A stretch of DNA of 64,000 bases from Escherichia coli (GCF_003334385.1 NZ_QOWN01000018.1), one strand, 5' to 3'; positions 4,871-31,281 are shown, numbered from the stretch's first letter. The notes: generated by a model not told the origin, from the letters alone. A program made the numbers and translations.

Positions 4871-5362
4871 ATGAACATACTTCTCTCTATTGCAATCACA
4901 ACAGGCATTCTCTCCGGTATCTGGGGATGGGTGGCTGTTTCCCTGGGCTTACTAAGCTGGGCGGGCTTCCTGGGCTGTACGGCCTACTTTGCCTGCCCGC
5001 AAGGTGGGCTGAAAGGGCTGGCGATCTCCGCTGCAACCCTGCTTAGTGGCGTGGTGTGGGCGATGGTCATTATTTACGGTAGTGCACTGGCACCACATCT
5101 GGAAATTCTCGGTTATGTCATAACCGGTATTGTCGCGTTTCTGATGTGTATTCAGGCCAAACAGCTGCTGCTTTCATTTGTTCCGGGGACGTTTATAGGC
5201 GCATGCGCGACGTTTTCCGGGCAGGGTGACTGGAAACTGGTGTTACCTTCGCTGGCGCTTGGGCTGATATTTGGTTACGCAATGAAAAACAGTGGCCTGT
5301 GGCTGGCGGCGCGTAGTGCAAAGACGGCGCACCGTGAGCAGGAAATCAAAAATAAAGCGTGA
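4871..5362 (+). CDS. ycdZ: inner-membrane protein (DUF1097 type)
   Basis: Hydrophobic ORF. Start trimmed to MNILLSIAITTG (163 aa) as in K-12 YcdZ. Confidence 0.85.
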   Translation: MNILLSIAITTGILSGIWGWVAVSLGLLSWAGFLGCTAYFACPQGGLKGLAISAATLLSGVVWAMVIIYGSALAPHLEILGYVITGIVAFLMCIQAKQLLLSFVPGTFIGACATFSGQGDWKLVLPSLALGLIFGYAMKNSGLWLAARSAKTAHREQEIKNKA

Positions 5363-5395
5363 GGGGCACTCACGCTTTCGCTTAAACAGTAAAAT

Positions 5396-5421
5396 GCCGG
5401 ATGATAATTCCGGCTTTTTTA
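5396..5421. terminator. hairpin terminator between convergent ycdZ and csgG
   Basis: GCCGGA-TGATAAT-TCCGGC followed by a T-run on the plus strand and preceded by an A-run. Confidence 0.65.
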
Positions 5422-5425
5422 TCTG

Positions 5426-6259
5426 TCAGGATTCCGGTGGAACCGACATATGGCGGTATTTCACCAGAATGTCATTCTGCCGTTCTGCTTTATTTTGCAA
5501 ATCCCACAGACCACGGTCGATACCATCATTAATCAGGAAAATGACCCCTGTTTCGATAGCCGACATCAGGCACAGCATAACAGGTTCGTTCGAGGTGTAA
5601 CCCACTTCCCCTTCAAGCAAGCGCTGGTAGTCAATAAAGCGGAAAACCCCGGCCTGAACTTCATAGGAAAGTATCGTCTTACTGGTGTTCACCGAAGAAA
5701 GGATCTCGCCGGTACTCACATTGACGACGCGCAGGTTCACGGCAATCTGATCGAGCTGGTATTGCGTGTCGGCACCGATGCCAAAATATCTTGCCCCAAC
5801 CCCGCCAGATTTGACGTTGCTTTCATAACCGATAATCGAACCTTCAACCATGATATTTGCCGCCGTTAAAGATTGCAGCGGGATTCGGTTATTAATGGCA
5901 ACCGTGCCGTTTTCTTGTGCCGCACGAATAATCTTGCGCTCGTTAAGCAGGTTTTGTAAGCCCTGGCGCTCCAGCGGTATAAACCAGCGAGAATCTTTCA
6001 GTGCCGTGACCAGCATTGCCGTGGCGCTTTGCGGAACAGCAGTGGAGAAGTTACTTGCCGGGTAGGGTTTAAATTGCCCGGTTTCGTCCTGAATGTTGTA
6101 TACCGAAACAAAGATTTTACCCGTCGGCGCTGGCAGATGGGTCAAATCTTTGTAGCTCTGAGCACGAGGCATTAATGTCGGTCTGGCGGCTTCTTTAGGC
6201 GGGGCGGTTAAGCATCCGCTCAGTAACATGACGGCAACCAAAAGAAATAAGCGCTGCAT
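5426..6259 (-). CDS. csgG: curli secretion channel lipoprotein
   Basis: 277-aa ORF starting MQRLFLLVAVMLLSGC (lipobox). Matches CsgG. Confidence 0.96.
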   Translation of the reverse strand: MQRLFLLVAVMLLSGCLTAPPKEAARPTLMPRAQSYKDLTHLPAPTGKIFVSVYNIQDETGQFKPYPASNFSTAVPQSATAMLVTALKDSRWFIPLERQGLQNLLNERKIIRAAQENGTVAINNRIPLQSLTAANIMVEGSIIGYESNVKSGGVGARYFGIGADTQYQLDQIAVNLRVVNVSTGEILSSVNTSKTILSYEVQAGVFRFIDYQRLLEGEVGYTSNEPVMLCLMSAIETGVIFLINDGIDRGLWDLQNKAERQNDILVKYRHMSVPPES

Positions 6260-6285
6260 GATTATTTTCCTTATGAAGCTGGGGC

Positions 6286-6702
6286 TTAAAAATCGGTTGA
6301 GTTATTTTGTAAACCCGAAACCTGGATGGTCGAGGTTTGTCCGGTTTTACGATCTGTCACGTTCAACTGCAATTGACCATCGCGGTTGGCAATATCGACA
6401 ATATAATCGTTGGTCACCATGCGGCCCGGTTTACCGGTATTAATATTCGACAGTAGCCCACCTAAAATTTGTGACTGGATGGCCTGAGTAAAGTTATCTA
6501 ACGCTGAGGGTGTTTCAATACCAAAGTCATCGTTATAGCTCGGATCTTTATAAGAGTTTTGGGCCTGAGCGCTATTTAATAAAAAAGCGCCATTATTTGG
6601 GTTACCACCAAAGTTTGGATTACGGAACTGGAAAGTCATGGTTCCAGCCCAACTTAATGGCGAAATAAGCATGAGTAGAACTACTGCATGTTTGACACGC
6701 AT
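6286..6702 (-). CDS. csgF: curli assembly component
   Basis: 138-aa ORF with signal peptide, in the csgDEFG operon position. Confidence 0.95.
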
Positions 6703-6726
6703 TGCAGCCTCCGAACAATTTTTTAT

Positions 6727-7116
6727 TTAGAATTCATCATGCGCCAAATCGCCCGTACTTAATAACGCCTGATTTATCTGGCGACGATTTAGTGCTTCTT
6801 CAGTTTGAATCAGTGCAAAGACGACAGTTTTCTCGAAGTCTCTTTTCAACGGAAATAAAAAAGTCTGGAAAATAACGTCCTGATTGACCGTTATAGTGAT
6901 CCAGCTTCCCCATCGTGCACTGGGCCTTTCATTAATCGTTAAGTTACCCGTATAGTCACTTTCCCATTTATCACTAAAGGCTCGGTAAAAATCATGGCCA
7001 ATAGATGAAACAGTATGGTCAGTTAGCAATCCCGGGACTTCTACCTCAACGGCGTGAAGATTCCCTGCGGCGAACAGAAATTCTGCCGCCACAATCCAGC
7101 GTAAATAACGTTTCAT
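6727..7116 (-). CDS. csgE: curli secretion specificity factor
   Basis: 129-aa ORF in the operon position. Confidence 0.95.
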
Positions 7117-7120
7117 GGCT

Positions 7121-7771
<651 letters not shown>

Positions 7772-8525
7772 GATGAAACCCCGCTTTTTTTATTGATCGC
7801 ACACCTGACAGCTGCCTCTAAAATAGAAGCACCAGAAGTACTGACAGATGTTGCACTGCTGTGTGTAGTAATAAATCAGCCCTAAATGGGTAAAATATAA
7901 AACTAATGGATTACATCTGATTTCAATCTAGCCATTACAAATCTTAAATCAAGTGTTAAACATGTAACTAAATGTAACTCGTTATATTAAAATGTTAACC
8001 TTAAGGTTTTATTAAGTTTAGAAATGATAGAAAAGTTGTACATTTGGTTTTTATTGCACAATTTTAAAAAATCATACAAATGGTGATAACTTACTAATAA
8101 TGCATATAAAAAATATTTCGGTGTAGTCCTTTCGTCATGTAAAACGTTCTTGTTTTTTCTCCACACCTCCGTGGACAATTTTTTACTGCAAAAAGACGAG
8201 GTTTGTCACGGCTTGTGCGCAAGACATATCGCAGCAATCAGCGACGGGCAAGAAGAATGACTGTCTGGTGCTTTTTGATAGCGGAAAACGGAGATTTAAA
8301 AGAAAACAAAATATTTTTTTGCGTAGATAACAGCGTATTTACGTGGGTTTTAATACTTTGGTATGAACTAAAAAAGAAAAATACAACGCGCGGGTGAGTT
8401 ATTAAAAATATTTCCGCAGACATACTTTCCATCGTAACGCAGCGTTAACAAAATACAGGTTGCGTTAACAACCAAGTTGAAATGATTTAATTTCTTAAAT
8501 GTACGACCAGGTCCAGGGTGACAAC
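7772..8525. promoter_or_regulatory. csgD-csgB divergent intergenic control region (long AT-rich, curved)
   Basis: About 750 bp of AT-rich non-coding DNA between the divergent csgDEFG and csgBAC operons. This is the known multi-regulator and sRNA-targeted region. Individual sites were not mapped here. Confidence 0.8.
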
Positions 8526-8981
8526 ATGAAAAACAAATTGTTATTTATGATGTTAACAATACTGGGTGCGCCTGGGATTGCAGCCGCAGCAGGTTATGAT
8601 TTAGCTAATTCAGAATATAACTTCGCGGTAAATGAATTGAGTAAGTCTTCATTTAATCAGGCAGCCATAATTGGTCAAGCTGGGACTAATAATAGTGCTC
8701 AGTTACGGCAGGGAGGCTCAAAACTTTTGGCGGTTGTTGCGCAAGAAGGTAGTAGCAACCGGGCAAAGATTGACCAGACAGGAGATTATAACCTTGCATA
8801 TATTGATCAGGCGGGCAGTGCCAACGATGCCAGTATTTCGCAAGGTGCTTATGGTAATACTGCGATGATTATCCAGAAAGGTTCTGGTAATAAAGCAAAT
8901 ATTACACAGTATGGTACTCAAAAAACGGCAATTGTAGTGCAGAGACAGTCGCAAATGGCTATTCGCGTGACACAACGTTAA
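8526..8981 (+). CDS. csgB: minor curlin / nucleator
   Basis: Start trimmed to MKNKLLFMMLTILGAPGIAAA (151 aa). Gln/Asn-rich imperfect repeats. Confidence 0.95.
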   Translation: MKNKLLFMMLTILGAPGIAAAAGYDLANSEYNFAVNELSKSSFNQAAIIGQAGTNNSAQLRQGGSKLLAVVAQEGSSNRAKIDQTGDYNLAYIDQAGSANDASISQGAYGNTAMIIQKGSGNKANITQYGTQKTAIVVQRQSQMAIRVTQR

Positions 8982-9021
8982 TTTCCATTCGACTTTTAAA
9001 TCAATCCGATGGGGGTTTTAC

Positions 9022-9477
9022 ATGAAACTTTTAAAAGTAGCAGCAATTGCAGCAATCGTATTCTCCGGTAGCGCTCTGGCAGGTGTTGTTCCTCAGTACG
9101 GCGGCGGCGGTAACCACGGTGGTGGCGGTAATAATAGCGGCCCAAATTCTGAGCTGAACATTTACCAGTACGGTGGCGGTAACTCTGCACTTGCTCTGCA
9201 AACTGATGCCCGTAACTCTGACTTGACTATTACCCAGCATGGCGGCGGTAATGGTGCAGATGTTGGTCAGGGCTCAGATGACAGCTCAATCGATCTGACC
9301 CAACGTGGCTTCGGTAACAGCGCTACTCTTGATCAGTGGAACGGCAAAAATTCTGAAATGACGGTTAAACAGTTCGGTGGTGGCAACGGTGCTGCAGTTG
9401 ACCAGACTGCATCTAACTCCTCCGTCAACGTGACTCAGGTTGGCTTTGGTAACAACGCGACCGCTCATCAGTACTAA
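9022..9477 (+). CDS. csgA: major curlin subunit
   Basis: 151-aa ORF starting MKLLKVAAIAAIVFSGSALA, with five SX5QXGXGNXAX3Q-type repeats. Confidence 0.97.
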   Translation: MKLLKVAAIAAIVFSGSALAGVVPQYGGGGNHGGGGNNSGPNSELNIYQYGGGNSALALQTDARNSDLTITQHGGGNGADVGQGSDDSSIDLTQRGFGNSATLDQWNGKNSEMTVKQFGGGNGAAVDQTASNSSVNVTQVGFGNNATAHQY

Positions 9478-9499
9478 TACATCATTTGTATTACAGAAA

Positions 9500-9523
9500 C
9501 AGGGCGCAAGCCCTGTTTTTTTT
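9500..9523 (+). terminator. rho-independent terminator after csgA
   Basis: CAGGGC-GCAA-GCCCTG followed by T8. Confidence 0.75.
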
Positions 9524-9535
9524 CGGGAGAAGAAT

Positions 9536-10300
<765 letters not shown>

Positions 10301-10394
10301 GTTTCTGAACAACTCACGTTGCTGAGCAGAAAAATGCGATTTAACCAAAAAGCCTGCTGTACACTTAAGAAACAAGAAGGTGTAAGGAGGCGTT

Positions 10395-10928
10395 ATGAAA
10401 ACGCGTATTCATGTTGTGCAGGGTGATATTACCAAACTGGCCGTTGATGTGATTGTGAATGCGGCTAATCCGTCATTAATGGGAGGCGGCGGCGTCGATG
10501 GGGCCATTCATCGCGCAGCGGGTCCGGCCCTGCTGGATGCTTGTTTAAAAGTCAGGCAACAGCAGGGCGATTGCCCTACGGGGCATGCCGTTATTACGCT
10601 TGCAGGCGATCTTCCCGCTAAAGCCGTAGTGCACACCGTCGGGCCAGTCTGGCGTGGTGGTGAACAAAACGAAGACCAGCTTTTGCAGGATGCCTATCTC
10701 AATAGCCTACGACTGGTGGCGGCAAACAGCTATACGTCAGTGGCTTTTCCTGCAATCAGTACTGGGGTTTATGGTTACCCTCGTGCGGCAGCGGCTGAAA
10801 TCGCAGTAAAAACCGTTTCAGAATTTATTACCCGTCACGCTTTACCCGAACAGGTATACTTTGTCTGTTATGATGAAGAAAACGCCCACCTCTACGAAAG
10901 ACTCCTTACCCAACAAGGAGATGAATGA
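10395..10928 (+). CDS. ymdB: macrodomain O-acetyl-ADP-ribose deacetylase / RNase III modulator
   Basis: 177-aa ORF with the macro-domain motif [23 protein letters not shown]. Confidence 0.95.
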
Positions 10929-19885: not shown

Positions 19886-19907
19886 GATATTTGTTCCCTA
19901 AATACAC
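19864..19907. other. attL-type junction: mdtG arm / shared CTGA (proposed CT core 19884-19885) / element arm GATATTTGTTCCCTAAATACAC
   Basis: The host reading frame is lost within 19881-19887. The same CTGA occurs at the other junction (31260-31263). Confidence 0.75.
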
Positions 19908-20048
19908 CATGAGAACATACCTGTTAATAACAGGACAATATCAGGTGAATGATTATGCAATTCAACGGTGTTTTTCCAAGTATCTAAGCAGTTTTACACA
20001 GATTCTATGCAGTATCGGTATAGTCTCTTTTTAGCATAACTTATTGAT

Positions 20049-20080
20049 ATCTATAAAGAATCTGTGAAGTCTCTTTTCAG
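20049..20080 (+). repeat. left copy of a roughly 32-bp direct repeat ATCTATAAAG-A-ATCTGTGAAG-TCTCTTTTCAG flanking the small recombinase gene
   Basis: Aligns with 21162-21191 (ATCTTTAAAG-T-ATCTGTAAAG-ACTTTTAAG), about 25 of 32 positions, same orientation. Degenerate extra copies lie at about 20022-20037, 21127-21140 and 21229-21254. Confidence 0.7.
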
Positions 20081-20287
20081 GGTAAACTGTATCGTGTTAG
20101 TCGTCCCTCTCTCGACTCCTAGAAAAGTGCTATATACAGGGCTATATAACGATATATAGATAGTTGGTCACATGGTGTAACTATCAAGAAACTTAACGAT
20201 TTCCTACGTGAAAGTTAGAAAGTGATGGTTATAGTTACCCTCCTAAAATCTTCATAGCTCCTTCATAACCAGTCTTAAAAGGACTTC

Positions 20288-20393
20288 CTTATGAGACACT
20301 TTCAACGTAACGGTAGAATGCACCTTCCAAGTGTCTCATAAGCTTGTTTTTGAATTATGAGACAGCTAAACTTATGAGACCAACTTTTGAGAC
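20288..20393 (+). promoter_or_regulatory. cluster of five TTATGAGAC-type boxes, including a perfect 14-bp inverted repeat, directly upstream of the small serine recombinase gene
   Basis: Boxes lie at 20289-20297, 20333-20341 (inverted), 20355-20363, 20372-20380 and 20385-20393 (TTTTGAGAC). CTTATGAGACACTT (20288-20301) is the exact reverse complement of 20329-20342. A possible weak promoter TTGAAT-17-TATGAG overlaps the boxes. Confidence 0.6.
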
Positions 20394-20408
20394 TTCTTAG
20401 GGGGATGT

Positions 20409-20957
20409 ATGGCGGTGATTGGTTATTGCAGGGTATCAACACAAGACCAGACTGTAGACAACCAGAAACTACAGATAGAGAAGGTTCACAAGGTCGATAA
20501 ATGGTTTATTGATGAGGCTGTCTCAGGAGCTACAAAGGCCACCAGCAGAGATGGTTTTAGAGACATGATGAACTATGTAAGGTGTGACGATACGTTAGTT
20601 GTGGTAGCTATTGACCGTTTAGGGCGTAATACCGTTGATGTGCTCTCTAACGTGGAGGCACTACAGACTAAAGGTGTGAGGGTTGTTTCTCTACGTGAAG
20701 GTTTCGACTTATTAACACCAATCGGTAGAGCAATGCTTACTATGATGGCTGGTTTAGCTGACCTTGAAAAAGACCTTATCAGTGAACGTAGAAAGGCTGG
20801 TATTGAACGTGCTAAAGCTGAAGGGGTTCACATGGGGAGACCTGTAAAAGCTTCTTCAGAGACTGTAAAGATGCTTATCTCACAAGGTAAAACGAGGTTG
20901 CAGATTCAGGAAGAGCTAGGAATCTCTAGAGCAACTTATTACAGACTTGCTAAATAA
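20409..20957 (+). CDS. small serine recombinase (resolvase/invertase family) with C-terminal HTH
   Basis: 182 aa. N-terminal IGYCRVSTQDQ catalytic-serine motif, DRLGRN, and C-terminal GRP...GISRATYYRL HTH. AGGGGGA RBS 5 nt upstream. Confidence 0.9.
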   Translation: MAVIGYCRVSTQDQTVDNQKLQIEKVHKVDKWFIDEAVSGATKATSRDGFRDMMNYVRCDDTLVVVAIDRLGRNTVDVLSNVEALQTKGVRVVSLREGFDLLTPIGRAMLTMMAGLADLEKDLISERRKAGIERAKAEGVHMGRPVKASSETVKMLISQGKTRLQIQEELGISRATYYRLAK

Positions 20958-21161
20958 GTTACTGAATAGTTACATGGATGTAGCTGATATTTGGCTTTTT
21001 TGCAAAGGGGGTCACATAGCTGGTGTGACGGGTACTTAGCAGGTATAGACCTGTGATAGATATTTTCGAAGATTCGGGGAAGATGAGATTCAAAGAGGGC
21101 TAGTCATTTTTTATAAAAATTTTCAGAATCTGAAAAGTTACTGTACAGAATATATACAGAC

Positions 21162-21191
21162 ATCTTTAAAGTATCTGTAAAGACTTTTAAG
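21162..21191 (+). repeat. right copy of the direct repeat flanking the small recombinase gene
   Basis: See 20049-20080. Confidence 0.7.
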
Positions 21192-21300
21192 ATAAAAGAT
21201 AGATATCCAGAAAGGATATCCGTTTAGAAAGACTGTTAAGTATCTCTTAAAAGAGAGTAAACCTTGTCAATAGTGATTGCAATAAAAATTTTTATTTCTT

Positions 21301-21963
21301 ATGTCAATTGAGCATATTTTAATCGGGAAGCATCATGGGGGTTCTGATTACTGGAGAACTCCATTTTTGTTATTTAAGAATCTAAACTGTGAATATATTT
21401 TCACGCTGGATGGTGCTGCAACTAAGCACGATACGTTATTACCCCGCTTTACGGATGATATTCACAATCAATCGTGGATTGGCGAAAGGGTGTTCTGTAA
21501 CCCGCCGTACAGCGATATTCCGTCGTTCCTCATAAAAGCGTCTGAGGCAGATTTAGCGGTATTCCTGATACCGTATAGAGCCAACACCAGCTACTGGCTT
21601 AGGCACATTTACAGCAATAACCACTGTCATGAAATCCGTATTCTTCATCGTGCAGTTAAATACCTTCCACCAGCAGGCCATAACGGGCTTACTATTCGTT
21701 CACCGTTTCCAAGTGCAGTCATTGTTTTTAAAAAAGAACCACGCAGGCATGAAATTACGCAGATGATTTGCTGTGCTGATACATTGCTACCGTTAACCAT
21801 CATTAACAGAGGAGGCTTAAGAGGAAGACCCACCATTTACCCACCTGAGACGCTCGACAGCTTCATAAAACTATACAGGCAAGGAAAACCCATTAAGTGC
21901 ATTGCAGATGCTCTCAGAATGCCTCTGAGCACGTCATACAGGATTGCGCAAAGGTTGAGCTAA
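21301..21963 (+). CDS. phage-type DNA N6-adenine methyltransferase (NPPY motif) fused to a resolvase-type C-terminal HTH
   Basis: 220 aa. SDYWRTPFLLF...LDGAA...VFCNPPYS is typical of the phage Dam-like family. The C-terminus GRPTIYPPETLDSFIKLYRQGKPIKCIADALRMPLSTSYRI resembles the DNA-binding tail of resolvases. No obvious SD, so the start is uncertain. Confidence 0.7.
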   Translation: MSIEHILIGKHHGGSDYWRTPFLLFKNLNCEYIFTLDGAATKHDTLLPRFTDDIHNQSWIGERVFCNPPYSDIPSFLIKASEADLAVFLIPYRANTSYWLRHIYSNNHCHEIRILHRAVKYLPPAGHNGLTIRSPFPSAVIVFKKEPRRHEITQMICCADTLLPLTIINRGGLRGRPTIYPPETLDSFIKLYRQGKPIKCIADALRMPLSTSYRIAQRLS

Positions 21964-22067
21964 AATTCTCATAAATATGGTCATTTACAAGACAGGTGAT
22001 TCAGATATTAAGAAGTATCCCTGTGAACAATAAATGACCAATCAGTAATTATTCTGTGAAATAATTG

Positions 22068-22096
22068 TTGCAATTTATAATCACATCTGTTATAGT
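22068..22096 (+). promoter_or_regulatory. sigma70-type promoter TTGCAA-17-TATAGT upstream of the replication gene leader
   Basis: Hexamers at 22068-22073 and 22091-22096 with a 17-nt spacer. Confidence 0.55.
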
Positions 22097-22274
22097 TTCT
22101 ATATGGGCTGATAAAAAAGTTCATGTCTTGAAGTGGTAACACTTGGGGAGGTGTCAGATGGTTGGCGTATAAAACCTCTCATTCATGGTATACCTCAGCG
22201 TTTTAATCATCGTACTGTTTCAGGCATGGACTTCTTTATCAGTCCATCAATCCCCCAGATATTTTAATCACACA

Positions 22275-22304
22275 GGCTAATCGGTTTTATCCGGTTGGCC
22301 TTTT
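22275..22304 (+). terminator. terminator-like hairpin (possible attenuator, or end of a roughly 200-nt leader RNA) 20 nt before the rep start
   Basis: GGCTAATCGG-TTTTAT-CCGGTTGGCC (10-bp stem with two G-U pairs) followed by TTTT. Confidence 0.5.
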
Positions 22305-22325
22305 CACATATGAGGTATTTTATGA

Positions 22326-23294
22326 ATGAAAAAAGAAACTAATGCTTTTATTATGGTAGATAAACGAGTTGCACAATTCCCTAAAACATTAAAGCCAATT
22401 GACCGCTTGGTATATTTCACTATGCTGGATGGTGCTGATTATTACGAATCTAAGTTCGGGAGATATGCACCAAGTATTGACTATTTGATGGTTATGTCTG
22501 GTGCTACACGTAATACAGTTATTGACTCTCTGAAAAGACTTGAGTCACACAGGCTTATTGAGAAGACCAATATCAAAGGGCAGCAAAGTATTTTTAAAGT
22601 ATTCACGTTAGATGAGCGTCCAGAAGTCTTATCAGAACCTACCCTTGATGAGCGTCGTAGAGTCAAATTATCAGGTCAACCAGAATCTGACACTAACCCA
22701 ACCAAAAATTGGTTACCTACCCAACCAGAATTTGGTTACCTACCTAACCAGAAATTGGTTACATGTAATACTGAATATAAAGACAAAAATATAAAAACTA
22801 AAGAAGAAAGACTAAAAGGGAACTTTGAAGAAGAATCTCTTAAGAAGGGAGCTTCGCTCTGTGATTCACATGAATGTGATATTAAAGAAGATGACTTTCT
22901 TTCTTTGGATGAATTAAATGATTTTCTCTCTATGAATGAATCTGACCTTGATAGTGAAGCTACTAAAGAGGTCGTTAAAAAGGAAGATAAAATCTCTGAT
23001 GTGATTGCTAGTAGTGACCATAAAAACACACAGTGCCCCGCCACTGATGATGAGATGGACCCCTTCGATGATGATGAAGAGGATGAAGAGTCAGAACGTG
23101 AAAAAGCCATTAAGAGGGTAGAGAAGAAAAAGAGATTCGAGCTTGCAAGACAAAAGAACAAAGTATCGGGTTTAGACCCATTCGATGACAGTGAAGATGA
23201 TTATTATCTTTCACCGAGAAAGAAACAAACCCAGGATGACAAGAAGCAAAAAATTAAACCGAAGATGTATTTTGCTGGTGGAGGTATGCGCTAA
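22326..23294 (+). CDS. putative replication initiator (N-terminal winged-helix-like domain, iteron-encoding linker, acidic/Lys-rich C-terminus)
   Basis: 322 aa with GAGG RBS. Its architecture parallels lambda O: the origin iterons lie inside the gene. Function is inferred, not recognised by homology. Confidence 0.55.
   Translation: MKKETNAFIMVDKRVAQFPKTLKPIDRLVYFTMLDGADYYESKFGRYAPSIDYLMVMSGATRNTVIDSLKRLESHRLIEKTNIKGQQSIFKVFTLDERPEVLSEPTLDERRRVKLSGQPESDTNPTKNWLPTQPEFGYLPNQKLVTCNTEYKDKNIKTKEERLKGNFEEESLKKGASLCDSHECDIKEDDFLSLDELNDFLSMNESDLDSEATKEVVKKEDKISDVIASSDHKNTQCPATDDEMDPFDDDEEDEESEREKAIKRVEKKKRFELARQKNKVSGLDPFDDSEDDYYLSPRKKQTQDDKKQKIKPKMYFAGGGMR
22678..22810. other. putative origin of replication: half-iteron plus three 23-bp-spaced palindromic iterons AACCA-N5-TGGTT, then an AT-rich tract
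   Basis: AACCAAAAATTGGTT at 22700-22714, AACCAGAATTTGGTT at 22723-22737, AACCAGAAATTGGTT at 22746-22760, and a half-site AACCAGAAT at 22678. The A/T-rich run 22761-22810 follows. Confidence 0.65.
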
Positions 23295-23584
23295 TGAGAG
23301 AATATAACGGTGAAAAACGATACAAAGATTATCTATTAAGGCGCTACAGCATTTCTCGTGAAGGTCATCTTCTGAAAGATACTCATGGGGAGGTTTACCG
23401 GATTCGACCGAAGAAGGAAGGAAAGAATTATTTCTTTTTTGATGGTGTGACAGATTTAAAGATTGACGCTTTGAGGTTTGCAGTGCTGTATCATTATGAT
23501 ATCTGGGATTCGGTCCACCAGCTACGATTAAAAGACGGTGACCCCGGTAATCTGAGGGCCACCAATATCATCACAAAACGTTAG
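23294..23584 (+). CDS. small protein of unknown function (weak NUMOD4/HNH_3-like pattern)
   Basis: 96 aa, ATGA-type overlap with the rep stop. YSISREGHLL...LKDGDPGNLRATNI faintly recalls homing-endonuclease-associated DNA-binding modules. Confidence 0.45.
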   Translation: MREYNGEKRYKDYLLRRYSISREGHLLKDTHGEVYRIRPKKEGKNYFFFDGVTDLKIDALRFAVLYHYDIWDSVHQLRLKDGDPGNLRATNIITKR

Positions 23585-23766
23585 TTTGTTTTACCATCAT
23601 CAATCGTAATTGTGATTTCATATTTGAAAAGCTTAATGCTGAAATTGAATCGTGTACTTTTGGCGATAATCATTTTTAAAAGCTGATACACCAGAAGCAC
23701 CAGAAACACAAAGCAACCTAAGCTTGCGAATCTGTGAGATTCAGCAATTGTTTCAAGAAAGCCCAT
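23581..23766 (-). CDS. 61-aa single-pass membrane protein (toxin-, holin- or exclusion-like candidate)
   Basis: It has its own promoter TTGTCA-17-TATTAT and SD AAGGGGA. Hydrophobic core LGCFVFLVLLVYQLLKMII. It is the only minus-strand gene in the element besides the integrase. Confidence 0.5.
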   Translation of the reverse strand: MGFLETIAESHRFASLGCFVFLVLLVYQLLKMIIAKSTRFNFSIKLFKYEITITIDDGKTN

Positions 23767-23816
23767 TAATTCCCCTTATTTATCAAAGGGAATGACCTGT
23801 ATCAGCCCCTATAACC

Positions 23817-23867
23817 ATAATATCATGTAAATGAGATGTTGACAATATGTTAAATAAATGTTAAGAT
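23817..23867. promoter_or_regulatory. back-to-back divergent sigma70 promoters with overlapping -35 hexamers
   Basis: Plus strand: TTGACA (23839-23844)-17-TAAGAT (23862-23867). Minus strand: TTGTCA (complement of 23840-23845)-17-TATTAT (complement of 23817-23822). Confidence 0.65.
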
Positions 23868-23903
23868 TGTAGTATGAGTAAGAGATTTAAGGAGATTTTT
23901 ACA

Positions 23904-24194
23904 ATGACTCACACAGTTACGCGCCTTTTGCCAGAGGCATTTGAACGACTGGCAGCAATCAAAGCCAAATACCCTGATATGAAGCACACGGCGCTTGTTG
24001 GAGAGCTTTTAAAAGAGTCGGTAGCCCTGACCCCTTTCGATAACGTTAAGGGCGTTGCAGAGGGTTCTAAGGCCATCAGAATCACAACAGGCCAACTGGA
24101 ACTACTCAAAGCGCAGTCCGCAGTAGCAGGTTGCTCAATGATTCAGGTGTTAAGCACTAAGGTTCATCAACTGGCGGATAAATTGGAGGTTTAA
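23904..24194 (+). CDS. putative tandem ribbon-helix-helix DNA-binding protein
   Basis: AAGGAG RBS 9 nt before ATG 23904 (the ORF track start 23874 is less likely). Two beta-alpha-alpha-like segments: HTVTRLLPEAFERLAAIKAKY... and AIRITTGQLELLKAQSAVAG.... Confidence 0.5.
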   Translation: MTHTVTRLLPEAFERLAAIKAKYPDMKHTALVGELLKESVALTPFDNVKGVAEGSKAIRITTGQLELLKAQSAVAGCSMIQVLSTKVHQLADKLEV

Positions 24195-24580
24195 TGTATG
24201 ACTTTTATAAACATCGTGACCATTTGGTAAGATTTGACGGTAGAGTCTGGAAAGACATAACAGAAACCAATAAACCCAAGTTTACCCACCAGCAATTAGC
24301 CTCAAGATTTGATATCTGGACTGAAGCACAAAAAGATAATGGTGATTTCGAGTTTATCAGGGGTTTTGATTATGCTTACGAAGATGACCTTAAAGACGCC
24401 ATTAAATTAATTGAAAATTTTAATGGAAATAATTCTGGTGACAAACACAAAGCCAATGGTAATCGGTATGACAGGGAGTTAATTCTTGATGCCATTTCCA
24501 GAGGTCAATCACAAAGTTATATTTCTGAGAAATACGGCTTATCACGTAGTCAATACTACAAGATTAAAGCGTCTGTGTAA
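24194..24580 (+). CDS. hypothetical protein with resolvase-type C-terminal HTH
   Basis: 128 aa, TAATG overlap with the previous gene. C-terminus ISRGQSQSYISEKYGLSRSQYYKI. Confidence 0.55.
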   Translation: MYDFYKHRDHLVRFDGRVWKDITETNKPKFTHQQLASRFDIWTEAQKDNGDFEFIRGFDYAYEDDLKDAIKLIENFNGNNSGDKHKANGNRYDRELILDAISRGQSQSYISEKYGLSRSQYYKIKASV

Positions 24581-24717
24581 GCCTGTGAGAATGAGTGAGA
24601 CTCAAAGATGAGCTACCCTATTACTAAGGTGTCTCACTCCCTCTGTAACCCGCATGGTTACTGGCCTCAGAATGGCTATTTTGGCAGATTTAAGATGTGT
24701 TTTAGAGGAATTTAAAA

Positions 24718-25041
24718 ATGAACAACTTCCCATTACAAATTTTCGTTGATAACGACACCGCTCTGATGATTCAGGCTTTCACTGATTCCGGTGTATCAAT
24801 TGACTTTGACAGGCTGTTAGAGTTGATGGCTGATAATGCAGAAAACATCTCTGACTTTATTCAGTCGGTGGAGTTTAACGAGCCTCGAATGATGCTACCA
24901 ATTAAAGACAGCAACATGAAAAGATTGGTTATCGAGCAAACGAACAAATACAGCGTTAGCCCTGAAAGATATCTCAAGGCAGCTATAGCAATTTTGTGCG
25001 CTGACAATATTTTGGTGACGGATTCGAAGGTGGTGCATTAA
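24718..25041 (+). CDS. hypothetical protein
   Basis: 107 aa, AGAGGA RBS. No recognisable motif. Confidence 0.5.
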   Translation: MNNFPLQIFVDNDTALMIQAFTDSGVSIDFDRLLELMADNAENISDFIQSVEFNEPRMMLPIKDSNMKRLVIEQTNKYSVSPERYLKAAIAILCADNILVTDSKVVH

Positions 25042-25118
25042 TGGGCTTAATAATTGCTTGGACAGCTTTGGGTTTATTTGTTGGTTGCTGGGTAGGTAAC
25101 ACAGTAAATAAGAATTGA
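25041..25118 (+). CDS. possible 25-aa hydrophobic peptide (MGLIIAWTALGLFVGCWVGNTVNKN), translationally coupled
   Basis: TAATG overlap with the preceding stop. Below the ORF-track size cut-off and found by reading. Confidence 0.3.
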   Translation: MGLIIAWTALGLFVGCWVGNTVNKN

Positions 25119-25143
25119 TGTTGCCAATCTGTTAAAAAGCTGT

Positions 25144-25172
25144 TGACAAATAACCTTAAGCATGACATAATT
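25144..25172 (+). promoter_or_regulatory. sigma70-type promoter TTGACA-17-CATAAT heading the late/structural operon leader
   Basis: Hexamers at 25144-25149 and 25167-25172. Confidence 0.6.
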
Positions 25173-25535
25173 TTAATTATGGGAGAGTAATTCTCTCTTA
25201 TATTTCTTTCAATAATCCGATGGATGGATGGATATTCTGAGTTGGTGAGGTATGTTCTATACCGAACATTCTGAAAGGTGCAATGCTTTTCGCTACATGA
25301 CCTCTTATATAACCTGAGAGGTCATCTCGAAAAGTACTCTTGTTCATTCGTTATTGAATCCTTTAGATGTTTTAATTTCTTCACCTTATGAATAGCCCTT
25401 TATAAGAAATTATCTAGGGCTATTCAGTTTTTAAAAAGCATACTTGGCAAACCGCCTTTTAAGTCTCTTCTAAGTTCGTAGGCTGTCAGGTGTGCTTTTT
25501 AAAAACTGAATATACTTAGAAGAGGAAATGAAATA
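25173..25535 (+). promoter_or_regulatory. roughly 360-nt non-coding, hairpin-dense leader (candidate cis-regulatory RNA or packaging/recognition site)
   Basis: No ORF with an RBS. Hairpins at 25184-25198, 25253-25270, 25298-25326 (9 bp) and 25391-25426 (10 bp). A 20-bp perfect inverted repeat (25422-25441 and 25494-25513) overlaps the last hairpin. Confidence 0.55.
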
Positions 25536-26246
25536 ATGGCAAATGACATTTATATTAGTGGAAGAAAAATTGATAGCTTCGGTGACTGGTCGCCACAGAC
25601 TGAACATCCAGCTATCGTTATTCAGCGTAAAGAACACGATGCGAGAATTGAGCTTGAGCAAGAGCTAAAGATGTCACCAAAGCAAATTACCTTTGTGTCT
25701 CCTGAGCCTCAAGAGATGCCTGATGTATGCAAGAGTGAAGCATTGCTTGAGCTTGAAAAGAAATATTTCCCAGCTTTAAAAGCACAGCGTCTTAGATTAG
25801 ATGACGCTTACAGCAAAGTTACCCTGATGCAATCAGCTATTGAACCGTCAGAATTTGAGATTCAGGATGAATTGTCACAGAAACCATTTGTTTATTACCA
25901 ATATGCAGACAATGATGGTTTTGGTACTTTTCCTGAGAATATCCCAGACGCGATTAGTAGTCTTCCTGATGGATATCGAATTGTGAAGATGGTTAAAGCT
26001 TCAAGGGGTGCTGGTCAATTTATTTATATGACCAATAAGAGCGATGAAGAACTCGCTGAACTTGCTAGACAGAACATCTTGGCATCACGTAACAAGCAGC
26101 TTGATAGTGCTAAGTTGTATCTCTCAAGAGAGCTTCAGGCTATGAAAGAGCTTGTTAGTGAATATGAGTCGCAGAAGAAGATTGCTATGCAAGCTGATAT
26201 TGAGCAGTTAGTGAAGATTTCTCAGAAGTATAGTAAAGCACTTTAA
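25536..26246 (+). CDS. hypothetical protein with coiled-coil C-terminus
   Basis: 236 aa, GAGGAA RBS. No recognisable family. Confidence 0.55.
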   Translation: MANDIYISGRKIDSFGDWSPQTEHPAIVIQRKEHDARIELEQELKMSPKQITFVSPEPQEMPDVCKSEALLELEKKYFPALKAQRLRLDDAYSKVTLMQSAIEPSEFEIQDELSQKPFVYYQYADNDGFGTFPENIPDAISSLPDGYRIVKMVKASRGAGQFIYMTNKSDEELAELARQNILASRNKQLDSAKLYLSRELQAMKELVSEYESQKKIAMQADIEQLVKISQKYSKAL

Positions 26247-26270
26247 TTATGAATTAAGAAGAGGTGATTA

Positions 26271-26480
26271 ATGTTTGAAGAACGTTTAGAGACTATTCGG
26301 TCTGTTTGTGAAAACTTAAAGTTACAAACCAAGCCAGCCTTAAGAATTAAAACCAAACATCAAATTATCACCTCACACAAACCAAAAACACGCAAGATTC
26401 CAAAGTGGTGTATTGACCGTATTCCTTCTGATGCTCAAATCATAGGTGAAACGGAATTACATTATCTTGTCCGACATTAA
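26271..26480 (+). CDS. hypothetical basic protein
   Basis: 69 aa, GAGGTG RBS. Confidence 0.45.
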   Translation: MFEERLETIRSVCENLKLQTKPALRIKTKHQIITSHKPKTRKIPKWCIDRIPSDAQIIGETELHYLVRH

Positions 26481-26503
26481 AAATTGGTTGGGTAAAATCA
26501 ACG

Positions 26504-26544
26504 GGAGAGATTATCGAGTGACATCGGTAGTTTCTCCTTTTTTT
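26504..26544 (+). terminator. imperfect hairpin plus T-run (possible terminator or pause) before the tape-measure gene
   Basis: GGAGAGA...TTTCTCC outer stem followed by T7. Confidence 0.4.
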
Positions 26545-26577
26545 GTATATGAACACTTAAGAGGTGAAAAAATATGA

Positions 26578-28749
26578 ATGGCACAGTTTAAAGTTGATGA
26601 TTTTCTGATTGAGCTAGGTTTTAACTCTCAGAGGGTTTTAAAAGGTCTGGAAAAAGCCGAGAAACAAACGATGCAGGTAGCATCACGAATTGAGAAGCGA
26701 TTGAATAAAGCTTTTAAAGTTAACCCTACGCCTTTAAATGATTCTCTCAAGGTCATGGAAAGAAATGTCGATAAAACTGTTTCCAAGATTGAGCAGCGTC
26801 TTAAAAACACTAAAGCGTTTAAGATTAAAACGGAAATTGAGGATACTTTAAAGCCACTTAAACAACCGAGACAGCCACGAATTAGCGGCAACAGAGCAAT
26901 CACAGCAGCACATAGTGTGAATATGTCTAAGCTTGGTGATATTAATCCGCTGATGGCTAAAATGTTTAAAGCACAGTATTACAGCTTAAGCGGTAAGGCT
27001 GGTAATATTGGAAGTGAAAAGTTTAACGCTGAACTTGCAAAATTAAATCAATCTCTTCGTGAAACGTTGAATAAACTCAGGTCACAGACAAAGACCGCCA
27101 GCATCAGCAAAGTAAATGATTCCTTTAATAATCTTGCAAGCAATGCAATTAAGTTATCTGGTGCATTTTACTCTGTGATGGGTGCTCTTAACGCTTACAA
27201 GGCCATTATGAATGCAGGTCTTAAACGAGATTCCGCACAGAGAGCCGCTAAGTTTGTACTTGGTGATAAAGCATCTGAAGCTGAAACATTTATCAGGGGA
27301 CTGGCTGACAAGACAGGTCTTAATATCTCTGAAGGACTATCAAGCTACGCTAAGTTTGCAGCAGGTGCTCAGGGTTCTATGTCACAGGAACAGACACAGG
27401 AGCTATTTGGTAATGCAACGGCTATGAGCCGTTTAATGGGGCTTTCTAACGATGAACTAAACGGCATTTTGAAAGCTTTTGAGCAGATGGCTTCTAAGGG
27501 CAAGATTCAGGCTGAAGAATTACGTGGGCAGTTAGGTGACCGTATGGCTGGTGCATTTAAGCTATTCGCTGAAGCATTGGGTATGACTGCTACAGAGCTT
27601 GATGCAGCCATGAAAAACGGGAAGGTACTTTCCGCTGATACTCTCCCTAAAGTCGCTAAACAGATGGGCTTGATGATTGATAAAGCGGGTGGCTGGGCTG
27701 AAGTCGCTAAGAGCACCCAGACAGCTTTAGGTAAGTTAGCAAACAACTGGGATGATACGATGGTTAAAATCTTCTCAGGTTCACAGGATGAGTTAAACGG
27801 CTTCTTATCCAGCCTGGGTAGCCTGCTTAGTGAAATGGGGATGAGTTCTTCTATCGCTGGTGATGCTATCGGTGGACTTATCGACATGCTTAAAGCTGGT
27901 GTAGATGATATTCGCGTATTCAATAACACCATTGAAGGCTGGATTTTACAGGTTAAAAAGTTCTATTACAGCCTTGATGACACTAAACGAAAACTACTTG
28001 ATGAAGTCGGTGATGGTTTTATCAATTTTGTCAAAGGTCTTGCTATAGCGTTATCTGCAAAGACGCTATTCAGTGCCACTACAGGGGTGATGAACCTGAC
28101 AAGAGCAATCACAACGTTAGGTACAAGAGCTAATCAGGTGGCTGGTCAGGTAACTACTGGTAAAGGTGGTGGAAAACTGAAAGGTGTAGCTGGTGGTGTA
28201 GGTAGTGCTCTTGCAATTGGTTATGCTGATGACGGTTATGAAACAGCGTTAGCATTAGCTTCAATGATTCCACAAATCAGAGGTGTCACCCTTGGTTTAT
28301 ATGCATTGAAGAAAGCACTGGATTTTATGAATCAGGAAGTAGTCAAAAACGCTAATATGCATCCATCTGGGGTAGGTGTGGGTAGTGACTTTAATCCTGT
28401 GTATTCTGGTGACCCTAATAAACCGAATATGATTAACGAAGGATGGAGTAAAATTTTTAATTCAATGGGTGAATTGTTTAACAATGCCACAATGAATATT
28501 GCAAGATTCAATCATCCAGAATTAAACAACATTAAGCAAGATTCAGCATTAACGAGTGCAGATATTCAGAGTCTGAGGGATGAAATTAGTGCTTTGAGTA
28601 AACGTATTCAGGAGCCTGTGAAAGTTTCACTTGGTGGTGAAGTTGCCATTAAACCAGATGAAACCAGCTTTATGACCTTTAGCAGTAATATCTACGACCA
28701 ATATGCAGAAGCTACGCTATTAAGTTCATCATTCCCAGAAGATGATTGA
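26578..28749 (+). CDS. phage tail tape-measure protein
   Basis: 723 aa with a coiled-coil N-terminus. The central tape-measure signature is GKIQAEELRGQLGDRMAGAFKLFAEALGMTATELDAAMKNGKVLSADTLPKVAKQMG. Gly-rich hydrophobic segments lie near the C-terminus. Confidence 0.8.
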   Translation: MAQFKVDDFLIELGFNSQRVLKGLEKAEKQTMQVASRIEKRLNKAFKVNPTPLNDSLKVMERNVDKTVSKIEQRLKNTKAFKIKTEIEDTLKPLKQPRQPRISGNRAITAAHSVNMSKLGDINPLMAKMFKAQYYSLSGKAGNIGSEKFNAELAKLNQSLRETLNKLRSQTKTASISKVNDSFNNLASNAIKLSGAFYSVMGALNAYKAIMNAGLKRDSAQRAAKFVLGDKASEAETFIRGLADKTGLNISEGLSSYAKFAAGAQGSMSQEQTQELFGNATAMSRLMGLSNDELNGILKAFEQMASKGKIQAEELRGQLGDRMAGAFKLFAEALGMTATELDAAMKNGKVLSADTLPKVAKQMGLMIDKAGGWAEVAKSTQTALGKLANNWDDTMVKIFSGSQDELNGFLSSLGSLLSEMGMSSSIAGDAIGGLIDMLKAGVDDIRVFNNTIEGWILQVKKFYYSLDDTKRKLLDEVGDGFINFVKGLAIALSAKTLFSATTGVMNLTRAITTLGTRANQVAGQVTTGKGGGKLKGVAGGVGSALAIGYADDGYETALALASMIPQIRGVTLGLYALKKALDFMNQEVVKNANMHPSGVGVGSDFNPVYSGDPNKPNMINEGWSKIFNSMGELFNNATMNIARFNHPELNNIKQDSALTSADIQSLRDEISALSKRIQEPVKVSLGGEVAIKPDETSFMTFSSNIYDQYAEATLLSSSFPEDD

Positions 28750-28905
28750 TTTAACGGTGTTCTACGTGAATAAAGCAAAGTTAATACCCGCACTAAAAAT
28801 TATTTTTTACGTAGCACACGCTTAACAGAGAAAATACTTATATATCAAAGGCTTGGTTAAAAATGATTAAAATACACTAAGCCTTTGAAATCAAAGGAGA
28901 ATTTA

Positions 28906-29694
28906 ATGATTTACTCTAATCAACTTCGTTACAGTGGCAAAGATGGTGTTTACTTCCATCTACAAGGCCAACCAGATAATTTCTTGTCACTATCAGCAAC
29001 AGAGAACATGGAATTTGACAGCCCTATGATGGTGACCACTCAAAATATGCAATCAGGGCAGACTGTAACAGATAATGTAATGCGTTCACCCAGAACTATT
29101 TCAATCAGTGGTGTGGTTGTAGTTGGTGAATCCGGTAGTATCCTCATCTCAAGAGATAATAAGCTGGTGGAAAACTTCATCGACACTCTTGAAAGCTGGC
29201 GTGACCAGAAGCAAATTATTTCGGTCATCTGTAAAGACGGAATTAAAATTGATGATTCTATTATTACGAGTTTTAAAGCCTCTAAAGATGTTGGTATTTC
29301 AAATGGTCTAAGAGTCCAGCTAACTTTTCAGGAAATTAACTTTAAAGCAATTGTAGGGCAAACTGATGTTTCAGCAGCTACTGGCAAAGCTGCCACCACG
29401 AATGACGGTGGTGTGACCAGTAAGAAGAATGCAGGTAACGTGACCACTGAACGCAATAACGCGCCTATGCTATCGTGCAAAGAGTTAATGAATATTAGCG
29501 ATGTATCCGGTTACGTTCCGGCTATCAGAAATGATATTCTCGATGCTCAGATTAAGTGCAATAAAGCTTGGAAGCTGGACTATTCAGACTTAACAGAAGC
29601 TGAAAAAACCAACGTCACCAATGCTAATAGTAACGCTGGTCGAGTAGCTTCAAAGCTTAAAAAGTACTCAGTGAATCCTAATAAGAGATACTAA
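28906..29694 (+). CDS. putative distal-tail (Dit-like) / baseplate-hub protein
   Basis: AAGGAG RBS before ATG 28906 (the track start 28885 is TTG). The N-terminal pattern [36 protein letters not shown] resembles Dit-like tail proteins, and it sits directly after the tape-measure gene. Confidence 0.45.
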
Positions 29695-31220
29695 ATCTCT
29701 ACTACATCAACATCTATTAAACCCCTCTCAGTGACTTCAGAAAGCGACTGTATAGCCTCTGTAACGTTGTCTGAGGGGTTTTCTGTTATAGGTAGGTCAA
29801 TTACCTTGCCGTTGTGAAAAGTCACTTTACAGCGACGTTTAGCGGCATCTATAACTATTTCTTTGAGTACGCCCTTGATAAGTAGCTGTGTCTCTATCAT
29901 CCCTTCCTTTGTTGTCCTGTCAATATCTTTGAGGCTTCCAGTTGTGATGGCCTTTATCCGCTGTGTTTCCTCTTCGATATCATGATTGAGTTTTGATAGC
30001 GCATTCTTCATATCACGTAATTTCTCTGTGATAATTGTCATGTCATCGAGTTCAATAGCGAGTTCTGCCATTTTTGAGATTTTACGCTGCAAATCTTCAC
30101 GCTGTAATTTAAGGCTATCAATAGTGTCAGTATTTTCAGTTTCAAAACGGTCGCATAATGCGAGCATGTAGAGAATAGTTGCATCCGTTTGCTTACGACT
30201 GATAGCCTTTGCACTACACCTGTTAGCTGAACGATTAGGGCATCTGTACATCCCAAAACGTTTTAAGGCATATCCACCAAGAACAATAGTAGCCCCACAC
30301 TCAGAACATTTGATGATACCCCTGAACAAGTTGACTGATAGCGGATTACTTGATACAGAAGCCCTACCATATTGCCCTGTGTTCAGTTGCTGTACTCGAT
30401 AGAATAGTGACTCACTGATTATTGCGGGGTAGTAACCCTGAACTTCTTCACGTCCAGCAGGTGTGAAACATCCAATCACAGCACGATTTCTGAGTAGTTT
30501 CTTTACAGCAGTATCAGACCACCCCTTTTGTTTGGGTGTGTATTGATTCAATGACAAGTGGCCTTCATCGTTTAAAGTTCTGGTGATAGCCCAAAAGCTT
30601 AAACCCTGTAATCTCAGGTCAAATGCTCGTTTAACAACTTCCACTTTATCGGGGATGATAGTGAATGTTCGACGGTCATCATTCAGCCTTAACCATGCAG
30701 GACAACGCCTAGATACCTTGATACCTTCGGAGATGAGTTCTTTTTTACGGTTCCATGCAGCTTGGACACGCTCAGACTTCCTCAGACTTTCCTCATGCGC
30801 CCGCTGCATTATCAGAATGCTTTTAATCAGGGATAACGGGTCTTTTAAACTTTCTCGTGTGTAATGTTCACCATCGGACAGGGTGACTACATCTACACCA
30901 GCCCTTAAGATACGGCGTAATAGCTCAGAAGCAATATCAATATCCTGACGTGACAGACGGTCTAAACTCTCGATTAGTAGCGTATCACCAGCTTTAACAA
31001 GCCCTTTCTCGATAGCGGTTAGAAAGTCACCTAGACCACCTTTCAGGTGCTTACCACTAAAAGCACTTTTCCCCAAATCTTTAAAGCTCAAGGATGAATC
31101 CAAGTAAAACTCAGGGTTCTTATCAAGCCAGTCAGTAACCAGCTTAGATTGTCTGCGTACAGAGTCCCCTTTTAGTTGTCGTTCACTTGAAAATCTGATG
31201 TAGCTGATTGCCCGTCTCAT
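29691..31220 (-). CDS. large serine recombinase (integrase)
   Basis: About 509 aa from ATG 31220 (the track begins at TTG 31226). [11 protein letters not shown] catalytic motif, DRLSRQ, a recombinase domain, a zinc-ribbon CSECG...[11 protein letters not shown] and a long coiled-coil. It lies 40 bp from the junction. Confidence 0.92.
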
Positions 31221-31239
31221 ATTCAATACCTAAAATGAT

Positions 31240-31281
31240 GTGTTTAGGAACCCATTATACTGAAGACAATACCGGACCACA
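31240..31281. other. attR-type junction: element arm GTGTTTAGGAACCCATTATA / shared CTGA (proposed CT core 31260-31261) / mdtG arm
   Basis: The mdtG frame (…[10 protein letters not shown]) leaves host sequence here and terminates after 3 foreign codons (MGS stop at 31244). Confidence 0.75.

Follow-up and report, generated by a model that had tools for sequence, protein, structure and literature searches.

The DNA analysed here, a 64,000-nucleotide stretch of an Escherichia coli genome (GCF_003334385.1, NZ_QOWN01000018.1; hereafter ‘the window’), carries an integrative element of ∼11.4 kb (positions 19893-31257, GC 0.39) that splits the gene mdtG at ∼19,893 and 31,257; the flanks are 100% E. 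coli, and the window is otherwise standard chromosome. Within the element lie three open reading frames (ORFs) that end in a small C-terminal three-helix helix-turn-helix (HTH) unit: sRec, which encodes a small serine recombinase (20409-20957), a gene for a 220-residue DNA methyltransferase (21301-21963), and o128, encoding 128 residues (24194-24580). A first-pass annotation of the window had delimited these three ORFs, and read their C-terminal sequences, exactly as our ORF listing has them; it had further suggested that a common resolvase-type domain lets the three proteins compete for, or cooperate on, the same DNA boxes. The main subject of this report is the methyltransferase, here termed Dam-HTH, in which a phage-type Dam core is fused to a resolvase-type DNA-binding domain.

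Dam-HTH is encoded on the plus strand and comprises a PF05869 core (residues 15-145, 21343-21735), a beta extension (residues 146-170), and an RGRP arm followed by the three-helix HTH (residues 171-220, 21811-21960). The core matches the Pfam Dam family PF05869 with 54.8 bits, against a cut-off of 28.1, and PHROG 111 (‘DNA methyltransferase’) at 1.2e-25. The NPPY, D-x-A-A and N-terminal W-TP motifs are all present, with the catalytic NPPY at residues 67-70, and F34, D37, A39, N67, P68 and P69 are nearly invariant in an alignment of 26 methyltransferase sequences, bearing out the earlier description of a phage Dam-like enzyme. The protein falls short of the equivalog TIGR01712 (phage_N6A_met), scoring 37.3 bits against a cut-off of 97.05 with residues 15-109 alone aligned, and belongs to a divergent subfamily of PF05869. 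Foldseek searches with the core returned weak matches to CamA, M.TaqI and the adenine methyltransferases (M subunits) of type I systems, and the full-length profile found no sequence relative in the PDB. Hia5 and Hin1523, non-specific adenine methyltransferases considered as possible relatives, were dropped: the corresponding paper shows DPPY/FxGxG enzymes with a target-recognition domain region, which form a different class. PADLOC reports only an ‘orphan methyltransferase’ (oMTase) rather than a restriction-modification system, and scans with Pfam, PHROG and NCBIfam found no restriction-modification nuclease among the ORFs of the element, in agreement with the earlier statement that no restriction partner is present.

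The tail of Dam-HTH reaches 21.8 bits for HTH_7 in a single-sequence Pfam search (residues 175-215), just below the cut-off of 23.8. A profile built from nine diverse tails of the subfamily matches the Sin resolvase (2r0q) at E=8.7e-7, covering both arm and HTH, and also matches the gamma-delta (6.8e-5) and Tn3 (7.4e-5) resolvases; the arms align as RGGLRGRPTIY in the methyltransferase and KGVYKGRPLLY in Sin. An AlphaFold2 (AF2) model of the methyltransferase (pLDDT 85.9) has a confident Rossmann-type core, a low-confidence linker (residues 171-180) and a confident three-helix bundle (residues 182-219), and Foldseek superposes the tail on Sin 2r0q over 55 residues with a root-mean-square deviation of 2.5 Å (prob 1.0). 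There is no reasonable doubt that the tail represents a true resolvase DNA-binding domain complete with its minor-groove GRP arm, and its type is closest to Sin/gamma-delta.

The kinship of the three tails is uneven. sRec is a small serine recombinase of 182 aa, with its catalytic serine within ‘YCRVSTQDQ’, that matches the Pfam Resolvase domain (E=3.8e-41) and the PHROG category ‘DNA invertase’ (7.9e-58); its tail (∼20835-20954) lies above the Pfam cut-off for HTH_7 (residues 143-179, E=1.7e-6, 28.5 bits vs 23.8) and is thus a resolvase-type C-terminal HTH. A three-way alignment of the sRec, Dam-HTH and o128 tails gives 28-38% identity and five invariant columns. When a hidden Markov model (HMM) of the methyltransferase tail was run on the 1152 ORFs of the window, the sRec tail was matched at E=0.0033, and o128 was not retrieved (E=5.1); the relationship of o128 appears only at the profile level, where an hhalign comparison with the methyltransferase tails yields 89.8% probability over 32 HTH columns.

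The o128 protein, encoded on the plus strand, joins a variable N-terminal domain to an invariant C-terminal HTH (residues 94-126, ∼24473-24571), which AF2 models as a three-helix unit behind a disordered linker. Its Pfam matches are sub-threshold, to HTH_28 (9e-4) and HTH_23 (6.7e-3), with none to HTH_7; resolvases are its top Foldseek matches, but with E>1, and its tail has no GRP arm. The recognition helices of the three tails are also unlike one another (SRATYYRL, PLSTSYRI and SRSQYYKI). The earlier observation of a resolvase-type HTH in three proteins is therefore confirmed, in the sense of a common fold family. The distribution of o128 is Escherichia-restricted. In the protein P0285, the HNH N-terminus encoded at 10336-10608 of the related locus L004 is joined to the C-terminal half of o128, a chimera that shows that recombination has occurred in this block of genes.

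The fusion in Dam-HTH was traced by an exhaustive HMMER search of 1.84 billion representative sequences, which returned 2702 methyltransferase homologues among representatives at 50% identity. Among the matches listed, the tail was aligned in only ∼10 entries, namely ∼8 clusters (P0121-P0126, P0129, P0165), whose identity to the query ranges from 61% down to 35-36%, and two fragments. The remaining listed homologues consist of the core only (∼140-190 aa) or are other fusions; among other long PF05869 proteins, the fusion partners are further methyltransferase domains, YagK/YfjJ or Lar, and not HTHs. The tail-bearing subfamily shares the beta extension (‘CADT-L-L’), and its members keep the arm residues G175, R176 and P177 wholly or almost without change. 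In distant members the recognition helix varies (PLSTSYRI, PRSSVGRI, PDRTLRRI, SRATIYRW). E. coli and Shigella hold many close homologues, nearly all of them 220 aa long, and among 118 cluster representatives from these genera pairwise identity is 94.9% in the tail vs 86.0% for residues 1-170, which indicates that the tail is under stronger constraint than the catalytic core. The methyltransferase arm is closer to Sin-type arms than to the arm of sRec, and the Dam-HTH fusion is already found in Erwinia and in metagenomic relatives. The fusion is, in short, an old and selectively maintained subfamily, not a local copy of the sRec tail. Public records label the methyltransferase only as Dam-type or as a DNA methylase, precomputed Pfam matches mark the tail in only 2 of 120 clusters, and we found no description of PF05869-HTH fusions in the literature searched.

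A locus search for relatives of P0122 found Erwinia typographi only, and the methyltransferase has no relative in IMG/VR. Each of the distant Dam-HTH genes (35-47% identity; L006/L011 of Erwinia typographi, 5099-10705, and L009, 5465-19200) is preceded by a divergently oriented gene for a small tyrosine recombinase of 186-205 aa. In L009, and apparently also in the contig-truncated L006, the gene lies in an island of ∼14 kb that carries a 550-aa tyrosine integrase; the L009 island additionally has a weak capsid-E match.

Comparison of related elements shows that the three genes with HTH tails assort independently. sRec occupies an optional cassette of 761 bp on the plus strand (sRec-A; 20237-20997, limits taken from BLAST breaks), inserted in a polymorphic slot that follows GGTTATAGTT (20229-20240 and 20963-20997 in the window; 6217-7101 in L001; ∼2737-2773 in L002). 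The slot holds sRec-A on the plus strand, a second recombinase gene, sRec-B, on the minus strand, or nothing. L002 has the methyltransferase and an empty slot; L001 and L003 have the methyltransferase together with sRec-B, whose product is 35% identical, is encoded on the opposite strand and is accompanied by its own TGTCTATAG boxes; L004 has an sRec-A that is 98% identical and lacks the methyltransferase. Small serine recombinase genes are thus exchangeable cassettes in this element family, and the methyltransferase tail is essentially unchanged across the sRec backgrounds. o128 is present in L002, L015, L017 and L018 and absent from L001, L003, L014 and L016, and in a presence/absence matrix its occurrence is independent of both sRec and the methyltransferase, so that nearly every combination of the three is found. 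The sequences compared hence present the three proteins as independently exchangeable modules.

The boxes themselves follow sRec. The cluster at 20288-20393 consists of an inverted pair (20288-20308 / 20322-20342, inverted repeat I9) and three direct copies that extend up to the sRec ribosome-binding site; four of its TTATGAGAC copies are exact and one has a single mismatch. Exact TTATGAGAC copies occur only at 20289-20380 within the whole 64 kb, inside the sRec cassette. A single near-box follows the methyltransferase stop codon (21966) and is also present in elements without sRec-A. Neither the co-occurrence nor the common box expected of a shared operator set was found, and the TTATGAGAC boxes are best explained, on this distribution, as the recombinase's own res-like or autoregulatory (operator) site; sRec and o128 would each bind sites of their own through HTHs that are related but distinct.

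The element that carries these modules belongs to a widespread family, with related elements matched in 570 of 5426 complete E. coli genomes (∼10%), at several att sites and with differing integrase alleles. Its integrase is a large serine recombinase of 511 aa on the minus strand (29691-31226) with NCBIfam matches of the XisF/Ccr type; it is 98.6% identical in L001, which occupies the same mdtG site, and other alleles (35-68%) are found at other att sites. A replication-initiator-like protein (Rep) is encoded on the plus strand at 22326-23294 (PHROG replication initiation families, 4.9e-8 to 1e-6), and three tandem 23-nt iterons (ACCCAACCAAAAATTGGTTACCT; direct repeat family D2, 22696-22764) lie inside its gene, as in origins embedded in initiator genes of the lambda-O type. 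Two further plus-strand genes relate the element to virulent phages: a tape-measure protein gene (26578-28749; TMP_3, 1.4e-21), whose product has 31% amino acid identity to the tape-measure protein of Felixounavirus, and a gene for a 269-aa protein (28885-29694), the homologue of AYO145A gp109, which in Felixounavirus comes next after the tape-measure gene (66% identity at the amino acid level; 82% at the nucleotide level over 518 nt, 28930-29438). The element also encodes several small proteins. Pfam and PHROG scans recognised no capsid, portal or terminase genes in it, and scans with these and NCBIfam recognised no classical repressor gene. The gene set is accordingly of the kind expected of a PLE-like phage satellite: an integrase, a Rep-like protein with iterons and helper-related genes, short of a full virion set.

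Base composition points in the same direction. The element has no GATC site where ∼48 would be expected, vs 3.8 per kb in the chromosomal flanks, and none is present in eleven related loci (L001-L004, L014-L020). GATC is likewise missing throughout the 87,372-bp genome of Felixounavirus AYO145A (NC_028825.1; compared as L012, L010 and L013), where ∼300 would be expected, and a GC content of 39% is common to element and phage. The literature searched yielded no description of Felixounavirus satellites or of GATC absence in Felix O1.

A third link lies directly upstream of the methyltransferase gene. The methyltransferase cassette includes an upstream region of 140 bp (21161-21300, plus strand) that is present in L001-L003 and absent from the methyltransferase-less L004. 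Of this region, 62 nt (21179-21240) are 87% identical to an intergenic segment of AYO145A (24261-24321; BLAST E=8e-14) that occurs there in single copy between the divergent genes gp044 and gp045; relative to the gene that follows it, the segment points the same way in phage and element. A second stretch of 48 nt (21101-21148), within intergenic sequence that L004 also has, matches another non-coding region of the phage (15923-15971). These phage-like stretches may represent a helper-responsive promoter or regulatory region. No sigma-70 consensus was recognised directly upstream of the methyltransferase. The region contains two palindromes, GATATCC-N5-GGATATC at 21201-21219 and TCTCTTAAAAGAGAG at 21243-21257. 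Apart from short AT-rich words, the k-mers enriched in the intergenic DNA of the element were just the sRec boxes. The 57-bp repeat motif of Felix O1 (CTTAAAAGTCTGTAAAG) was considered as a source of the intergenic boxes of the element and set aside, as it showed no convincing enrichment. Because of the tail-gene homology, the shared regulatory stretches and the absence of GATC, we regard the element as a probable satellite (PLE-like) or parasite that exploits virulent Felix O1-like phages, with early genes that would respond to the helper.

Against this background, we give roughly even chances to the reading we favour for the 220-aa protein, that of an orphan phage-type N6-adenine methyltransferase whose tail targets it to DNA. 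In serine recombinases, arm and HTH hold the catalytic domain about a helical turn away from the bases they recognise, as in the gamma-delta and Sin complexes. Dam-HTH has the same order of domains (catalytic domain, arm, HTH), and it is for this reason that targeting by the tail is favoured. The small core lacks a recognisable target-recognition domain; the tail would hold it at or beside a specific sequence, and adenines within roughly a helical turn of the bound sequence would be methylated. Methylation would fall on the DNA of the element, and possibly on that of the helper, for protection or marking. The gene itself is, in E. coli, an accessory cassette, the first in the rightward gene block of the element, and its expression is probably tied to helper infection, since the cassette brings with it an upstream region partly copied from the phage. 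The tethered or targeted methyltransferase of the first-pass annotation is plausible, and its more modest suggestion, an orphan methylase that acquired a DNA-binding tail, agrees with what was observed.

GATC, by contrast, is improbable as a target within the E. coli lineage, because the element and its putative helper lack the site and the host is already Dam-positive. Neither DNA would offer a substrate to a GATC-specific enzyme, although purifying selection acts on the gene, which argues for a specificity other than GATC.

Several points weigh against tail-directed methylation. The domain architecture, its conservation, the independent assortment of the three genes, the distribution of the boxes and the phage links are observed; methylation targeted by the tail, its geometry, the non-GATC specificity and helper-dependent expression are inferred, specificity and targeting purely so. 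The distant Dam-HTH islands L006 and L009 do not avoid GATC, so that the argument for a non-GATC specificity holds for the E. coli lineage only. The low-confidence linker leaves the relative orientation of tail and core loosely defined in the model. No repeated candidate binding motif tied to the methyltransferase was found, and distant members have no boxes in common in their upstream regions. Many elements lack the methyltransferase (145 of the 570 genomes by megablast; also L004), which is therefore dispensable for the element's life cycle. Finally, satellite status and helper identity are read solely from homology and composition.

The alternative that survives best, though we think it rather unlikely, is that the tail merely adds non-specific affinity or processivity to a generic anti-restriction methyltransferase, with methylation across the genome at a short motif that the core dictates. 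The PADLOC class of orphan methyltransferase would suit this reading. Core-only PF05869 enzymes of 140-190 aa form the overwhelming majority of the family, which suggests that the core alone may be a working enzyme, and neither the k-mers of the element nor the upstream regions of distant members disclose a DNA motif linked to the methyltransferase. The tail, however, retains the GRP minor-groove arm and a recognition helix, the features with which resolvases bind specific sequences, is better conserved in E. coli than the core, and has recognition helices that diverge in distant members as expected for diverging specificities.

It is less probable again that the tail is a regulatory HTH like those of SsoII and EcoRII, the protein doubling as a transcription factor on its own promoter or on other promoters of the element. 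The position of the gene at the head of the rightward block, behind its own 140-bp upstream region with palindromes, and the lack of a recognised classical repressor gene in the element would suit such a role. The idea is weakened by the main palindrome (21201-21219): it lies within the 62 nt shared with AYO145A, a phage that has no Dam-HTH homologue, and on the minus strand it is scored as a hairpin with a T-run behind it. Known autoregulating methyltransferases, moreover, carry their HTHs at the N-terminus, and no shared boxes are recognisable upstream of the distant Dam-HTH genes in L006 and L009.

Dam-HTH could be a natural ‘DamID-like’ enzyme of an undescribed family of E. coli satellites that depend on GATC-free Felix O1-like phages, a core of low specificity that the resolvase domain delivers to a few defined sites and that is switched on from a helper-derived promoter, whose N6-methyladenine (m6A) would tag satellite or helper DNA (distinguishing self from helper during replication or packaging) or sabotage helper expression; we hold this to be distinctly unlikely. 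Still fainter is the prospect that the protein acts on the helper instead of the element, methylating sites of Felix O1-like phages and disturbing helper gene expression or packaging: the phage-derived regulatory DNA in the cassette, the other helper-derived genes of the element and the effectors that satellites such as PLE deploy against their helpers make it conceivable, but nothing points to a target, and most elements of the family can do without the methyltransferase.

Faintest of all is a switch in which the three tails read the TTATGAGAC family and methylation masks or marks recombination sites, as first proposed, for although the tails are homologous and distant Dam-HTH genes also adjoin a small recombinase (of the tyrosine type), this epigenetic switch is largely refuted by the comparative data, with exact boxes confined to an optional cassette, other boxes in the alternative cassette beside an unchanged methyltransferase tail, differing recognition helices, and each of methyltransferase without sRec, sRec-A without methyltransferase, and methyltransferase with another sRec on record.

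Dam-HTH combines features of several known systems. The phage-type Dam enzymes (PF05869/TIGR01712), among which we count those of T1, HP1 and Stx phages, share with it the W-TP, D-x-A-A and NPPY core, orphan status and location on a mobile element. Characterised PF05869 members are reported to form m6A at GATC. In contrast to these enzymes, Dam-HTH carries a 75-residue C-terminal addition, made up of the beta extension and the resolvase DNA-binding domain and missing in >99% of family representatives, and GATC specificity is unlikely to be useful to it. With small serine recombinases (HTH_7; Sin 2r0q, gamma-delta 1gdt, Tn3 5cy1) it shares a GRP arm and three-helix HTH at the C-terminus; it differs from them in having a methyltransferase catalytic domain and neither an E-helix nor a dimerisation surface.

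Fusions of a DNA methyltransferase to an HTH are known as such from other classes. SsoII, EcoRII and MspI are C5-cytosine methyltransferases of restriction-modification systems whose N-terminal HTH represses their own promoter and binds a sequence other than the methylation motif. Here, by contrast, the enzyme is an orphan that would act on N6 of adenine, the added domain is C-terminal and of the resolvase type, and no operator was identified. Eukaryotic DIRS retrotransposons also bring together a PF05869-like methyltransferase domain and a site-specific recombinase, of the tyrosine type, in one mobile element (PMC3783388). Unlike in DIRS, where the methyltransferase domain lies inside pol and no HTH tail is reported, the association in E. 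coli is an optional gene neighbourhood.

The closest parallel to the element as a whole is PLE, the phage satellites of Vibrio cholerae, which are small islands of 11-18 kb. Common to both are small size, a large serine recombinase, Rep with iterons, the lack of recognisable capsid and terminase genes, and a link to a virulent myophage. The present element differs in carrying copies of helper tail genes (the tape-measure gene and the next one), and no sequence relationship to PLE was seen, though none was specifically tested for.

If tail-directed targeting is correct, Dam-HTH would be a case of natural bacterial DNA methylation that is targeted rather than motif-wide, and a ready scaffold for directed m6A tools; if the tail adds only general DNA affinity, it would be an ordinary orphan methylase whose domain make-up is unusual. 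No less interesting than the protein is its setting: an element that copies tail genes, regulatory DNA, base composition and total GATC avoidance of Felix O1-like phages is a candidate for a new pairing of satellite and helper in a model organism, and the role of the methyltransferase can be tested directly with the available phages BASEL Bas63, wV8 and AYO145A.

Further features of the element deserve mention. A 37-nt inverted repeat, 84% complementary with a 34-nt spacer and rich in TTTTTAAAAA, occupies 25413-25520, just 5′ of a conserved ORF of 236 aa (o236) that PGAP labels ‘transposase’ and that has no Pfam, PHROG or NCBIfam match; the loci that o236 retrieves from IMG/VR are left-truncated proviral predictions in isolate genomes, and not virion DNA. 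The ORF o96 (23294-23584) ends, by eye, in an HNH-like ‘KDGDPGNLRATN’, its only family match being a sub-threshold one to DUF7271, and the region equivalent to o96 in L004 is the one annotated as an HNH endonuclease (10336-10608). L004, which lacks both the methyltransferase and this Rep allele, contains ∼1.5 kb (7995-9497) with no ORF >64 aa and no annotation, which could be a non-coding origin or RNA region. Lastly, the conserved ORFs o106 (23874-24194) and o107 (24718-25041) have no significant family match and, by eye, a ribbon-helix-helix-type look, which makes them candidate regulators of the element.

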